Assembly: GCA_963731265.1 (NCBI GenBank) | Contig: CAVSUE010000001.1 | Location: 640,001 to 704,000 of the forward strand | Direction: 5' to 3' | Origin: an uncultured Verrucomicrobiae bacterium | GTDB taxonomy: Bacteria > Chlamydiota > Chlamydiia > Chlamydiales > Rhabdochlamydiaceae | DNA: 64,000 nt | In this document: in pieces, positions 2,863 through 62,289 of the stretch | Layout: each line of letters opens with the position of its first letter | Position numbering within the stretch: position 1 is the stretch's first letter | Notes under the pieces: generated by a model | Told to the model about the DNA's origin: nothing | Databases searched by the model: none | Seen by the model: only the letters and a program-made list of their open reading frames with translations | Program-made: the position numbers and the translations under genes

Positions 2863-3121
2863 TATACGGAAAATGACTCAAAAATTGGTTTTTGGCTGCG
2901 TTGGCTATGCAGCAAATTTTTTGTCTTCAACTCAACCAGTTCGCGCGCTGCATCGCGCTTCACCTCGAGATCAGACGCGAGCCAAGCAGTTGGCTCGCTT
3001 CTCGGCAAACATGCCGAGACTGAATCTCGAGCCTTGTGCTTGCACAATGTCGCTTGCTCCAGACAAAAAATTTGCGCAACCGCCTTGCCAAATTCCCAAC
3101 TTTTGAATCATTTCCGGTATA
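2863..3121. mobile_element. palindromic MITE-like element, family E
   Basis: Imperfect TIRs TATACGGAAAATGACTCAAAAATTGG / CCAACTTTTGAATCATTTCCGGTATA with internal hairpins; right end recurs at 56762..56823. Confidence 0.8.
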
Positions 3122-3677
3122 TCGATTCTTCTTGCAGAAGTTTTCCCAAAGCTTCTTCGTAAGTTTCTTTGAGGATTGTGGTGAGAAATTTGGTGTCTAA
3201 ATTGTGATTCATATAGTCGAGATTTCCTTCGTGAATCGATATGACTTGTAATTTTTGGGGTTCCGGTTGTGAACCGTCCGGTTTTCTTAGAAAAATATCG
3301 ATCTGAACATTAATAGGTTTAAAAGGATAATTAACAAGATAAGGTCGAATTTCATCGCAATCATTAATTTTATTGAGAGCAACATTTTCTGCATTAATTA
3401 ACAATTTTCTGGCGGCATTAATGTCAACTTCGTGATAGTAATTAAATCCGAAATATAACATTTTTATTTCATCCATCATCTGAGCTCCAGTACCACATGG
3501 TCGCAGATCTTCTTCGATGGATAGTTTAGCAAAAACCTCCTTGCGTATTTTATTGACTAAAATAGAATCTGGAGACGATTCATAAATATTTGTTCTGTTT
3601 TTTGTGCAGCAAGAAAGTAATAAAGCTGAAGCTGCTATTAAACAAAGTTTACGGATATTTACCTTGGCGTTCTTCAT
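3108..3677 (-). CDS. hypothetical lipoprotein-like protein, possible immunity partner of the upstream DUF687-like protein
   Basis: Signal peptide with LLLSCC; low GC; overlaps the upstream gene end; immunity role inferred from context. Confidence 0.6.
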   Translation of the reverse strand: MKNAKVNIRKLCLIAASALLLSCCTKNRTNIYESSPDSILVNKIRKEVFAKLSIEEDLRPCGTGAQMMDEIKMLYFGFNYYHEVDINAARKLLINAENVALNKINDCDEIRPYLVNYPFKPINVQIDIFLRKPDGSQPEPQKLQVISIHEGNLDYMNHNLDTKFLTTILKETYEEALGKLLQEESIYRK

Positions 3678-4479
3678 AATCCTTTATTATCTTTATGATA
3701 ATTGGTTTAAATGTCAAGCTTTGAAACTCATGATTAATTCCAGTTGCTCCTTCATGAGATTTTAGTATTATAAGCTCATCACGAGCTTTTATTGCCTCGG
3801 CATATCTTTCCATTATGTCTTTTTCAGACTTTCCTTGCATTACTGCCTGCCAACTAGAACATAAAATATCTCCTAAGTGTACAAGGTCTTTATCGCTTAC
3901 ATACTTTTGCGACATAAAGCACATCTTATCAGGTATTACCCTCGCAGGAGCGATAGAAACCACGATCAGCCGATCACAAATTTCTTTGGGCAAATCAGCA
4001 ATTGCATTATAGGTGTCGATCGTTCCTTGACTATGACAGAAGTGAAGAATTTTGGCATCGGGTCTATCTTTATTTTTTTCATGGAACTCTATCCATTTTT
4101 TAATCAACAAATCTTTGGTTACTGGCGAATATCCCAAATAATTCAGAAACAATGCTTCCCCTAAGTCCAAGACCTTGCCATTTGAATGGTTATAGATTCC
4201 ATCAATGCGTAGATTTCCCGGTGACAAAGTGTTAAGATAGCTCCCGCTGCTGAATGATTCTTGCTCTTTGTTATCTATTCCATTGATAAATGTTATCAGC
4301 ATCCCATCTTTGCAAACTCCTTGAGTGTTAAAATATCTAGAAATATTGTAGTCAGGAATTTCTGTCCTCATCGACGGGCTAGGAAGAAAAGGGAGTGTGT
4401 GGACGCATTTTGCCAAGCAGGGAGTGAGACATTTGCTTGATTCCCACCTCCAATCTGATTGGGGTTTAAAAGATTCCAC
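3649..4479 (-). CDS. DUF687-like alpha/beta-hydrolase domain (likely C-terminal part of a frameshifted gene)
   Basis: FINGIDN, GIYNHSNG, ILHFCHSQG (HSQG nucleophile elbow). Confidence 0.65.
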   Translation of the reverse strand: MESFKPQSDWRWESSKCLTPCLAKCVHTLPFLPSPSMRTEIPDYNISRYFNTQGVCKDGMLITFINGIDNKEQESFSSGSYLNTLSPGNLRIDGIYNHSNGKVLDLGEALFLNYLGYSPVTKDLLIKKWIEFHEKNKDRPDAKILHFCHSQGTIDTYNAIADLPKEICDRLIVVSIAPARVIPDKMCFMSQKYVSDKDLVHLGDILCSSWQAVMQGKSEKDIMERYAEAIKARDELIILKSHEGATGINHEFQSLTFKPIIIKIIKDYEERQGKYP

Positions 4480-5699
4480 AACGAATTGAGATGTTGCTTG
4501 TCAATCGAGTTTTGGCTGATATTTTCAAAGGCGAGTTTTTCAAATCCGAATTTGATGCTATTTATGAACTCCGAAACAGACGGATTCGAATTTTCTATGG
4601 GAACTGTAATATCTTTCAGCAACACGCCTAACTGAATATTCGGATCAAATATTTTGGGTTCTCGCATGCCTTCGCTGATGATTTGGAAACCGAGTCTGGC
4701 TTTCTCTGCAAAATTGAATGCTGGGGTTGGGGGAAGGGTTGCAGCGGCGAGGGCCGCTCTATAAAAGGACGCGGTTATGAAAGCCTCATCGATTTTCTGA
4801 TGGCCGGTCTGGATGAAATTGCGCCAGTTTTGTTCAGCGGAGGATGTTTTGGAAAATTCGCGACGTTGGGTGTCATTGAGCACGGTATTGGTGACCATCT
4901 GAATGGCCGTCCCTCTGGGATCGAATGTGGGGTCTTCTTTTTTCAGATGGGCGAGATCGGCCTCGGTCAATATTTCGAGGCGATCAATGCAATTCCAGGC
5001 GTTATGGGCTTCCTTTTTTGCGTTTTCGAATTCATCATCCGAGCCTGTGGTTAGCGAAAGAGTGGGTGCTGAAGACTTGAGCAGGTTTTCAACCCAATCG
5101 GGCAGGGGAGGTGGAGGAGAAGCAGCGGTTTTAGGACCGCTCGGCTCGTCCTCTTTTTTTCGGGGAGATGGACTGGGGGCAGCTGAAGCGCCTGCGGCAC
5201 AAGCGCCAGCTACCATGTAGGCCCCGCACACTGCTGCGGCTACGGCCCCGACGATGAGAATTTCTTTTTTGTGCTCCACCACAAATTCTTCAACTTTGTG
5301 TGCAGCTTTTTTTGTGCCGTGGGCAATTATTTCGAATACTCTTTTGGCGGCATCTGCAACCTTTCGAGCGCCTTTCTTTACTCCATGCCATAATCGATGG
5401 AAAAACCCGGCGAGGTCGACTTGAGCAGGTTGAAGAGAATTGTGGAAGGTGAGTTGATCCCTAAGGAGAGAACAAGGTGCGAACACAAACTCGGATGGGG
5501 CCTCATCATCGAGTACAAGTTGTTTGACGGCGTGGGGGAAGGGTTGATCTTGGGGTGGGAATTGAAAAAGCGTGGTGGTTGTGGATTTCGGCGCGACGGC
5601 AGTGACTTCTCGCCCGTTCCAGAGGTGGATTGCGCAGGGGGCGTTTGGTTGGTAAAAAGTTTCGAGGGAATCTCCAACGGCGTCGACGTCATCGATCAT
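4368..5699 (-). CDS. hypothetical protein (N-terminal part; overlaps the DUF687-like ORF in the -1 frame)
   Basis: 443-aa ORF with a hydrophobic Ala/Gly-rich segment and Pro-rich linker. Confidence 0.6.
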   Translation of the reverse strand: MIDDVDAVGDSLETFYQPNAPCAIHLWNGREVTAVAPKSTTTTLFQFPPQDQPFPHAVKQLVLDDEAPSEFVFAPCSLLRDQLTFHNSLQPAQVDLAGFFHRLWHGVKKGARKVADAAKRVFEIIAHGTKKAAHKVEEFVVEHKKEILIVGAVAAAVCGAYMVAGACAAGASAAPSPSPRKKEDEPSGPKTAASPPPPLPDWVENLLKSSAPTLSLTTGSDDEFENAKKEAHNAWNCIDRLEILTEADLAHLKKEDPTFDPRGTAIQMVTNTVLNDTQRREFSKTSSAEQNWRNFIQTGHQKIDEAFITASFYRAALAAATLPPTPAFNFAEKARLGFQIISEGMREPKIFDPNIQLGVLLKDITVPIENSNPSVSEFINSIKFGFEKLAFENISQNSIDKQHLNSLWNLLNPNQIGGGNQANVSLPAWQNASTHSLFFLARR

Positions 5700-5787
5700 A
5701 AAATTTGAACCCCCATGTTTAGAGGGTGAAAATTTTAATTTAATTTAGCGTTAAAAAGCAAATTTAAATTTGTTAGTTGGAAAAATT

Positions 5788-61546: not shown

Positions 61547-61550
61547 TGGG

Positions 61551-62120
61551 ATGGAACACGAACACGATAACACAGTGGTTTTCGGATTTTGGATTTACTT
61601 GATGACTGATCTTGTCATTTTTGCCGTACTTTTTGCTGCGTTTGCCGTTTTGCGTGCGAACAACTTCGGAGGCCCATCTGCGCACGAACTTTTTCATATG
61701 CCGCTTGCTCTAAAAGAAACGTTGATCCTGCTCACAAGCAGCTTCACTTGCGCTTTGGCAATGCTTAGGATCCATCGGGGGGAAAAAAAATCGGCCATTT
61801 TTTGGTTTGCGGTAACTTTTGCCTTGGGCGTCTCTTTTCTCTATTTCGAAATCACAGAATTTTCCGATTTTATCGATCGAGGCGCCAGCTGGCGGCGAAG
61901 CGGGTTCCTTTCTTCTTTCTTTACCTTAGTGGGCACGCATGGCCTACATATTTCCATCGGTTTGCTCTGGATGCTTGTCGCCATGTTTCAGATAGTCTAT
62001 AGGCCATTATCCCATCATAGCGTGTCGAGAATTCTCAGAATGGCCCTTTTTTGGCACTTTTTGGACTTCGTATGGATCTTTATCTTTACGGCGGTCTACG
62101 GAGTGGGGCATTTACTGTAA
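61551..62120 (+). CDS. cyoC: cytochrome bo3 quinol oxidase subunit III
   Basis: FGFWIYLMTD, FTLVGTHGLH, FWHFLD. Confidence 0.95.
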   Translation: MEHEHDNTVVFGFWIYLMTDLVIFAVLFAAFAVLRANNFGGPSAHELFHMPLALKETLILLTSSFTCALAMLRIHRGEKKSAIFWFAVTFALGVSFLYFEITEFSDFIDRGASWRRSGFLSSFFTLVGTHGLHISIGLLWMLVAMFQIVYRPLSHHSVSRILRMALFWHFLDFVWIFIFTAVYGVGHLL

Positions 62121-62121
62121 C

Positions 62122-62289
62122 AACCTGAGTTTTGAGTTCATTTCATAGCAGCTTGCCGCATCTTTCGGGCGCTTTTTGCAGATTTTGGCGCGTCCATAGG
62201 TGCCTCCAGCTATTGAATGCGCCAAAATTTGCAAAAATCACCTCGAAATCTACGGCAATCTACTATAAAATGAGCTCAAAACTCAGGTT
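62122..62289. mobile_element. palindromic element, family B, copy 2 (between cyoC and cyoD)
   Basis: AACCTGAGTTTTGAGTTCATTT / AAATGAGCTCAAAACTCAGGTT. Confidence 0.9.

Follow-up and report, generated by a model that had tools for sequence, protein, structure and literature searches.

Gene-less palindromic mini-elements of several families at the gene junctions of an uncultured chlamydia-like bacterium

Rickettsia palindromic elements (RPEs) are described by in-frame copies which encode a recurrent peptide in unrelated genes (PMC10969869), and palindrome-associated transposable elements (PATEs) are presented as gene-less derivatives of IS200/IS605 insertion sequences that follow a scheme of a transposon-adjacent and a transposon-encoded motif (TAM/TEM; PMC10055086). 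For a MITE (miniature inverted-repeat transposable element) of Cardinium, derivation from IS982, and with it a known parent, has been reported (PMC10969869 and PMC9769881), and a size of 20-40 nt has been given for repetitive extragenic palindromic (REP) sequences (PMC3733652). In the chlamydial field, the available part of a study on the Rhabdochlamydiaceae treats transposase-bearing insertion sequences only (PMC9723776). A literature search for MITEs or palindromic elements in Chlamydiota found no paper; PMC9997750 was set aside as a candidate MITE report, its 'mite' being the animal. The subject of the present analysis is a 64-kb stretch, hereafter the window (G000:C1:640001-704000), of the genome of an uncultured chlamydia-like bacterium (2.34 Mb, two contigs, G+C 45.8%), in which a first-pass annotation from the sequence had listed hairpin repeats at a series of gene junctions. 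All listed loci were reproduced by repeat finding, each being a repeat at or within a few bases of its listed coordinate, and at least nine families of gene-less mini-elements, designated A to I, are present in the genome.

These repeats are very probably several unrelated non-autonomous transposon families that have recently spread in a compact, ~88% coding genome. Copies were searched with one single-copy nhmmer seed per family against the genome, both strands counted, and subsequently with profiles built from the first-round hits. Seed matches, the lowest E-value being 1e-83, numbered 76 for A, 34 for B, 49 for C, 4 for D, 41 for E, 38 for F and 25 for G; the profiles gave 54 loci for A, 20 for B, 51 for C, 35 for E, 30 for F and 22 for G. 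After removal of cross-family (E/F) overlaps, these six families amount to 207 loci covering 25,648 bases, 1.1% of the genome. The further genome-wide copies that the first-pass annotation had expected thus exist, except for D, which it had also taken for a dispersed family and which is confined to three loci, all within the window. Comparison of window tiles with the genome added two families beyond the earlier list: H (~50061-50171; 44 loci) and I (~19762-19930; a ~165-nt palindromic repeat with 3 loci).

Element ends were fixed by alignment of full copies with their flanks (11-24 copies per family). Twelve window copies were folded, each against 100 dinucleotide shuffles, and all twelve are more stable than their shuffles (z -2.7 to -16.8), with A, B, D, E, F and G folding end to end and C forming three separate GC-rich hairpins. 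The MITE-type families carry inverted arms of 20-47 nt, fold into a hairpin over their whole length, measure 96-255 nt and lack a transposase gene. A search of the 64-kb window against Rfam returned at the gathering threshold only two tRNA-Pro genes and no match to any element family, which speaks against an already catalogued RNA family.

The elements have moved recently, and their targets, their duplications and the protein ends they have changed can be read from related genomes. Forty relatives were sampled (24 from the window's own family, 16 from elsewhere in the order), among them the close relative G003, with genes 90-98% identical to those of the window, and the congeners G001, G002 and G005, with genes 65-78% identical. 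Eight window copies could be compared for presence or absence with G003, and six of them are missing there at base-exact empty sites, namely A1, F1, C2, G1, B2 and a block formed by B1 and a neighbouring IS607-family insertion sequence; empty sites in related Chlamydiota, as they had been proposed for checking, are therefore available. E1 is present at the orthologous G003 site with 99% identity, and A2 appears to be present, with an alignment at 80% identity running across the stretch. Additional empty sites occur in G002 for E1 and F1, in G001 and G005 for G1 and the IS607-B1 block and in G001 for C2. Two junctions are occupied by a different element in another species: a ~140-nt insert follows ATGAA at the C2 site in G005 (L024), and a ~170-nt palindromic element with different ends occupies the B2 site in G002 (L019), so that these two junctions have been hit repeatedly. 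Target-site duplications are evident from the copy counts of A, B, E and F given below, and the empty sites in G003 confirm TTTAA, TAACA and TA as the duplicated words.

Among the 40 relatives, none of the element families was found outside the window's own taxonomic family. Family C occurs in 13 of them, comprising 11 of 18 congeners and two of six other genera of the family. F was seen in four (E<=1e-12), E in six and A in five (both E<=1e-25); one of the five with A belongs to another genus and has 20 near-identical copies. Congeners also contain B and G. Copy F1 shares 92% identity with a copy in G013, the genes of which are 76-80% identical to those of the window, and its best match in its own genome reaches 88%. 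Equally, A is 86% identical in another genus, the genes of which give no DNA match at E<=1e-30. Such likeness of the elements across species above the likeness of the genes would fit horizontal spread or a conserved master copy.

The elements do not constitute one system, as at least four unrelated types of transposition are represented: a TA-duplicating type, two kinds of 5-bp-duplicating type and an IS200/IS605 type without duplication. Of the proposal in the first-pass annotation, that a single chlamydial equivalent of RPE- or MITE-like elements reshapes gene termini, the reshaping by such elements is upheld and the single system is given up.

Gene junctions harbour the elements far more often than chance would allow. 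By our own gene calls (an open reading frame (ORF) and codon-usage heuristic with longest-ORF starts, giving 1,928 genes), 106 of the 207 loci overlap a gene boundary or lie within 5 nt of one, versus 6.3% for uniform intergenic placement, in agreement with the earlier remark that many touch start or stop codons; the start-side part of this count is inflated because starts were taken from the longest ORF. The stop-side count is exact, with a gene stop inside or within 5 nt of 57 of the 207 loci, and 12 of the 207 loci lie well inside a called gene. In the window, eight loci contain or approach a start or stop codon to within 5 nt (E1, A2, F1, C1, C2, G1, B1 and B2), and A1, A3, D1, E2, F2 and H do not. 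This placement would have two reasons: the target words, TA, TTTAA, TA(A/G)NA, TAATG/TATG and ATGAA, are short, AT-rich and resemble stop or start codons, and in a dense genome selection probably spares no insertions but those at the extreme ends of genes.

Families A, B and G show how such words are used. The ends of A read CTCGACTTTGTAAC.. and are flanked by a 5-bp duplication, usually TTTAA or TTAAA. Among 25 full copies, 9 have an exact duplication, and most of the rest are one base off. The 179-nt intergenic copy A1 (9471..9649, +), with the same terminal inverted repeat, is bordered by TTTAA at 9466-9470 and 9650-9654, a word that is present once instead of twice in the empty site of G003 (..gatattTTTAAtcaaag..). 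The short 98-nt copy A2 (12325..12422, +) lies at the end of a GH63-type glycosidase gene (12410..15058, -), where its own end encodes ..STL and a stop in place of the last two or three glycosidase codons: the window protein terminates in LIQQTGTSTL, and the orthologues without the element terminate in LIQQAGTAL (G002), ..TAV (G005) and ..TAII (G001). The first-pass annotation had ascribed the TSTL end of this glucosidase to A, and rightly so. The identities of neighbouring genes, here and below, derive from Pfam (GH63/MGH1, BATS, COX3, COX4_pro, Resolvase, MerR and the TnpB zinc-ribbon domain). The 119-nt copy A3 (56116..56234, +) stands upstream of an aminotransferase gene (-), 30 nt from its likely ATG (56085). 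The segment 54949-56289, which comprises this gene and A3, is without equivalent in G003, in which the genes on either side lie next to each other.

Family B, with ends ACCTGAGTTTTGGG.., makes a 5-bp duplication TA(A/G)NA that is exact in 6 of 12 copies. The 166-nt copy B2 (62123..62288, +; fold z -16.8) separates the genes of cytochrome oxidase subunits III and IV, and the COX3 stop codon TAA is part of its duplication TAACA (62118-62122 and 62289-62293); the empty site in G003 (..actcTAATAggtac..) has TAATA versus TAACA..TAACA. The 163-nt copy B1 (44576..44738, +; terminal inverted repeat ACCTGAGTTTTGGGTTCA; fold z -11.9) ends 5 nt before the ATG (44744) of an ABC ATPase gene. It follows an IS607-family insertion sequence (42357..44568, +) with genes for a serine recombinase (42410..43024) and a TnpB-like protein of ~520 aa (42987..44534), which stands outside the MITE families and has ~10 copies or fragments of 96-99% identity in the genome. 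That B might be part of this neighbouring copy was rejected, as other B copies are not located beside IS607 copies. The word AGCTAATTA was observed at both junctions of the window IS607-family element; a word repeated at both junctions is unexpected for this family.

The ends of G read TGAACCTATCCCAG.. and define two subfamilies at TAATG/TATG-type sites. The right flank starts with TG in 7 of 11 copies, whereby an element end ..TCA followed by TG reads ATG, and the left flank ends with TA in 7 of 12. In the window, the 217-nt copy G1 (40993..41209, +; terminal inverted repeat TGAACCTATCCCAGAATTGG) is inserted exactly between a TAA stop (40990-40992) and an ATG (41210), and the empty site in G003 (..ggtatTAATGtatc..) is a TAATG stop/start overlap. 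Together with C2 and the IS607-B1 block, G1 occupies one of three consecutive junctions of an efflux operon.

Family C is of a different construction. Along the downstream gene's strand, its sequence is (G/A)TGAACC-hairpin-hairpin-hairpin-TTTCCGCC(G/A)GAGGAC(G/A)G and is then followed by ATGAA, which directly adjoins 39 of 47 intact right ends. It has no terminal inverted repeat, and its hairpins are located subterminally at both ends behind unpaired tips, as in IS200/IS605-derived elements. The left end begins with GTGAA in 34 of 45 copies and with ATGAA in 9 of 45; because of the 34 copies with GTGAA, the left tip is element sequence and not a duplicate of the target. Insertion takes place beside a fixed word and without target duplication, since the empty sites in G003, in G001 and in a paralogous insertion sequence copy carry a single ATGAA. 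The paralogous site is provided by a second resident IS200/IS605 copy, 97% identical, which lacks the C element located between tnpB and tnpA in the other copy. Consequently, the first-pass annotation was correct in that C supplies a stop codon and a predicted ribosome-binding site; the ATG, which it had also attributed to the element, is target DNA. As C abuts this ATG, the whole initiation region of a C-flanked gene is element sequence, whatever signal is used. The ATG after C opens at least 60 codons in 28 of 41 copies, the TGA of C closes a frame of at least 60 codons in 19 of 45, and both apply to 15 of 41 full copies.

The 112-nt copy C2 (39420..39531, +) exemplifies such a junction. It lies between a membrane-fusion gene (38422..39423) and an outer-membrane efflux gene (ATG at 39532), providing the TGA (39421-39423) for the former and GGAGG 4 nt before the old ATG of the latter, with both proteins intact. 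The empty sites in G003 and G001 (..ggcccATGAAg..) constitute an ATGA stop/start overlap, and the last upstream codon has changed from CCA to CCG, which still encodes Pro. The 113-nt copy C1 (38212..38324, -) abuts the ATGAA start of a phosphoesterase gene (36850..38211, -) with GGAGGACGG directly before the ATG. The segment 36859-38352, which holds most of this gene and C1, is likewise absent from G003, the neighbouring genes there being contiguous, and a contig in one public sequencing run shows a 112-nt 'goes back' joint at C1. Two C copies stand in direct tandem at G000:C2:65344-65564, on the second contig. In an alignment of 117 C copies from several genomes, which is a rough one, pairing of the middle hairpin is kept via double changes at three of three predicted pairs, and the consensus fold of these copies recovered the structure in part, because the middle of the alignment is gappy.

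Family C behaves as a gene-less IS200/IS605 derivative with TTCAT as the adjacent motif and TTCAC/TTCAT as the element-borne motif. Its asymmetric ends, three hairpins, lack of duplication and position 5' of ATGAA (TTCAT on the other strand) correspond to 'peel-and-paste' behaviour and would point to mobilisation by a Y1 (HUH) TnpA. Two full-profile Y1 TnpA hits (PF01797) are located beside TnpB in the genome, one with an undisturbed start and apparently intact, and there are 13 TnpB-type hits. The resident IS200/IS605 ends share the layout of the C ends and are partly alike in sequence: one side has TGAACC, a hairpin and GGGATT, and the opposite side has the hairpin CTCGGCCCTAAAGGGACCGAG at ~20 nt from its tip.

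Families E, F and H are flanked by TA. The termini ..GA(T/C)TCAAAA.TTGG.. are common to E and F and the core TGTGCTTGCACA is present, both as earlier proposed, and a chimeric copy (C1:1303769, on the first contig) joins the left half of F to the right half of E. Among full copies genome-wide, TA stands on both flanks in 6 of 8 E and 9 of 13 F copies. H, with a full length of ~230 nt and ends TACTGCTGAC...GGAAGCAGTA, is TA-flanked as judged by eye, and its ends often adjoin E and F copies. The window H copy (50061..50171, +) is a deleted one, abutting the 168-nt TA-flanked copy F2 (50176..50343, +), which is intergenic, located 33 nt before the ATG at 50377 and the weakest in folding of the twelve (z -2.7). 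E2 (56759..56825, +) is a ~67-nt intergenic right-end fragment of E with 89% identity to E1. TA duplication is a hallmark of IS630/Tc1-type enzymes. Resident IS630-type elements were considered as partners and discarded, as their repeat CTAGTGGTCCTTAAAG.. is unlike the ends of E, F and H. In G013 (L124; G013:C5:256309-259719), two ~164-nt E-like mini-elements lie inside an IS630-type transposase gene, one of them read through in frame.

Protein ends have been altered by E1 and F1. The 255-nt copy E1 (2865..3119, +; ends from an 11-copy alignment), with TA at 2863-2864 and 3120-3121, supplies the last codons and the stop (..IYRK) of gene 3108..3677 (-) and cuts off 12 C-terminal codons: the window protein ends in ..EESIYRK, the G002 orthologue without the element in ..EESEKASLKDPIKL, and a remnant of the old tail still lies beyond the element. 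The 164-nt copy F1 (32012..32175, +) has entered the 3' end of bioB (32000..33154, -) five codons before its end, so that KKRRAY is followed by 58 element-derived residues in place of five, with the stop located just after the intact ATG of 30933..32006 (-). In G003, BioB ends in KKRPAYARKNP, and the empty-site ends of G003 and G002 are ..FGLKKRPAYARKNP and ..FGLKKRAAYARKNA; the Pfam BATS domain ends at residue 320. The YRK end and 56 residues of BioB had likewise been traced to E and F in the first-pass annotation, and the empty sites substantiate both, for BioB with ~56-58 residues.

Open frames are much commoner in copies of E and F than in shuffled sequence, with up to four of eight E copies open per frame versus 0.018 expected; B and C are stop-rich. 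One recurrent frame of F/E (..NGNVGASDLQ..CKH..DAASCKDEDADEASGQ..) is read in BioB, RecC, a PP2C phosphatase, a 1018-aa protein and the N-terminus of a serpin. The copy in recC (C2:174710-174874, on the second contig) is in frame, flanked on either side by homologous sequence of one and the same ORF, and the insert is absent from the four orthologues matched on both sides, the fifth searched genome having matched on the C-terminal side only. The 1018-aa protein has ~85 extra residues compared with its G002 homologue. Insertion of F/E in frame into unrelated protein genes with a recurrent peptide, the characteristic of RPEs, is therefore found here. Because long open frames are kept, E and F can be read through, and read-through would add or replace C-terminal tails, as in BioB and gene 3108..3677, or insert ~55-60 residues inside proteins, as in RecC.

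For family D alone, an autonomous parent with the same ends was found. D2-D3 (22730..23772, +) are the two ends of an internally deleted, frameshifted 1,043-nt IS701-like insertion sequence with a broken transposase, and D1 (20982..21093, +; 112-115 nt; fold z -7.1), which touches no start or stop codon, shares its terminal inverted repeat CTGG(A/G)CTTTAGCCATTCGAA with D2/D3 and with intact elements. The ORF 22969..23292 has up to 82% identity to the N-terminus of 449-aa PF13546 transposases, and its 30-nt terminal repeat recurs in intact elements of 1,749 and 1,763 nt at metagenome loci L149 and L150; on these sequence matches, D is taken as a decayed IS701-like insertion sequence and D1 as its MITE. 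The first 13 nt of the A repeat match the D repeat at 10 positions, which is a lead, short of proof, for placing A in the family of D. A clean target duplication was found neither at D and D1 nor at the two intact metagenome copies, and for this reason the duplication length of IS701-like elements cannot be compared with that of A.

The window contains other repeats as well. A perfect 68-nt palindrome with 33-nt arms between two genes (28404-28471) was rejected as a further family, being unique in the genome. A 300-nt duplication of 100% identity (2070-2369 and 5917-6216) lies inside the ORFs 1516..2715 and 5777..6562, and each of these ORFs is followed by the same small hairpin (2726-2766; 6573-6613), which resembles the E/F terminus (CCAATTTTTGAGTCAA). 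The region 6641-8574 is a tandem ~965-nt duplication of 86% identity, each unit of which has a ~250-aa ORF and a tRNA-Pro(CGG) gene.

In the explanation considered most probable, that of several recently spread non-autonomous transposon families, A, B, D1, E, F, G and H would be classical MITEs, with long terminal inverted repeats, no gene and a target duplication, moved in trans by DDE transposases. Some observations weigh against parts of it. When the genome was scanned for pairs of ends 0.4-6 kb apart, an autonomous element was detected for none of A, B, E, F and G, the sole match being D and the rest adjacent separate copies. None of the resident DDE_3 loci has the ends of E, F or H, and 26 IS630-type loci of congeners have no A, B, E, F, G or H ends at their borders, E-like mini-elements being present inside the transposase gene only. 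For G, a duplication of 1-4 nt at TAATG, as (T)AT(G), is suggested by eye, and the automatic scan detected none because the alignment ends differ between strands. The ends of the resident IS200/IS605 elements are similar and not identical to those of C and their flanks are without TTCAT, so that these elements may not be the ones that mobilise C; the orientation bias of C (32 vs 19), as judged by local GC skew, has the direction expected for IS200/IS605, with the top strand on the lagging-strand template, but is weak. The length of E/F plus TA is not a multiple of three, and in-frame copies consequently need extra small changes, and some of the 'read-through' ORFs of E/F may be artefacts of the gene caller. 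Public sequencing runs were informative neither way: no RNA run with the genome is listed, a fraction of 0.18 of the sampled words is present in the best run, and contigs from four runs are short, consist mostly of the IS607 copy and C, and none joined across an element.

The strong palindromes, the many loci just after stop codons and a Y1 transposase family in the genome are also what would be expected of non-mobile, vertically inherited structures such as terminators, small RNAs or REP-like sequences with a domesticated REP-associated tyrosine transposase (RAYT). This is nevertheless very unlikely in view of the exact presence/absence polymorphism and the target duplications between close relatives. 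Furthermore, sizes of 110-255 nt contrast with the 20-40 nt of REPs, which are palindromes with a conserved tetranucleotide head, the Y1 genes reside in duplicated two-gene insertion sequence copies with TnpB and not as a single RAYT flanked by REPs, so that no REP/BIME-RAYT arrangement is recognised, and Rfam gave nothing at threshold in the window besides the two tRNAs. That a two-contig genome and relatives which are metagenome bins invite errors of assembly or binning is granted; as an origin of the repeats, such errors can practically be dismissed, since the same families stand at different sites in independently assembled genomes of several species, the junctions are base-exact with duplications, and the reading frames of conserved genes run through elements.

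A further question is whether transposition alone accounts for the junction copies. Several families seem built for harmless insertion: the start of C, (G/A)TGAAC, would re-create the upstream TGA, and its end, GGAGGAC(G/A)G, would be a strong Shine-Dalgarno sequence 4 nt before the ATG, by which C can split an ATGA overlap with both proteins unchanged. Element-borne Shine-Dalgarno sequences and stops may in this way act as actual signals. A tentative extension of the transposon reading, about which we are rather undecided, is that C, G and partly B are junction-adapted elements whose tips re-create a stop, in C also a Shine-Dalgarno sequence, and which colonise ATGA and TAATG overlaps harmlessly, that E, F and H stay open-framed as RPE-like peptide modules, and that all spread horizontally among host-sharing chlamydiae. 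An added layer, in which C, G and B would be retained at operon junctions for a job such as translation uncoupling, setting of ratios via hairpins, RNA processing or stability, or partial termination, appears improbable. It could draw on the conservation of the stop and Shine-Dalgarno sequence of C in diverged subfamilies and several genomes (78 exact pattern matches including the ..GAGGAC end), on the three occupied junctions of the efflux operon, on the different elements that G005 has at the C2 site and G002 at the B2 site and on the strong hairpins. Yet at six of eight sites the closest relative manages without the elements, which are thus not needed, ATGAA overlaps in the genome are occupied in 15 cases versus 65 free ones, and the copies are young and near-identical as expected of a recent burst.

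Mobile DNA is usually described as scarce in chlamydiae; here, the termini of housekeeping genes and the junctions of operons have been remodelled by small gene-less elements over no more than the divergence between close species. The E/F copies offer a second, independent intracellular lineage for the Rickettsia-type phenomenon of an element inside a protein, and C would be a clean natural example of a start-codon-aimed IS200/IS605-type element that brings its own stop and ribosome-binding site. In practical terms, element sites are annotation hazards, where starts may be misplaced, C-termini falsely extended and small ORFs called in error, and the presence or absence of elements can serve as a ready strain marker for these uncultured bacteria.

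Compared with the described systems, the likeness to RPEs consists in palindromic elements of ~100-250 nt in an obligate intracellular lineage, with coexisting families, many intergenic copies and a subset in frame in unrelated housekeeping genes. It is a likeness by description, and differs in that the phylum is another one, that target duplications and empty sites are clear, that the elements are located mostly at gene ends, and that E/F insertions do not preserve the frame by length. With Correia/NEMIS, ERIC, RUP and the Cardinium MITE, the MITE-type families share long terminal inverted repeats, a hairpin over the whole length, the lack of a gene, a duplication, tens of copies and a mostly intergenic or gene-end location, and the TA duplication of E, F and H matches Correia elements. 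Unlike for the Cardinium MITE, the parent is known here for D only; many families coexist, and a high fraction stands exactly on stop or start codons. The D2-D3 remnant resembles IS701 by its transposase remnant (PF13546, 449 aa) and the 30-nt terminal repeat of intact 1.75-kb elements, from which it departs by internal deletion, frameshift and the lack of a clean duplication; A, in contrast, makes a clean 5-bp duplication. Family C comes closest to PATEs, with no terminal inverted repeat, subterminal hairpins, no duplication, a fixed 5-nt TTCAT and TTCAC/TTCAT at the other tip, although its link to the resident insertion sequence is by resemblance only. Its design was not found described in a narrow search of the PATE literature: as the target word is the complement of ATGAA, C homes to start codons and ATGA(A) overlaps, and it departs from PATEs in carrying a stop codon at one tip and a Shine-Dalgarno sequence at the other.

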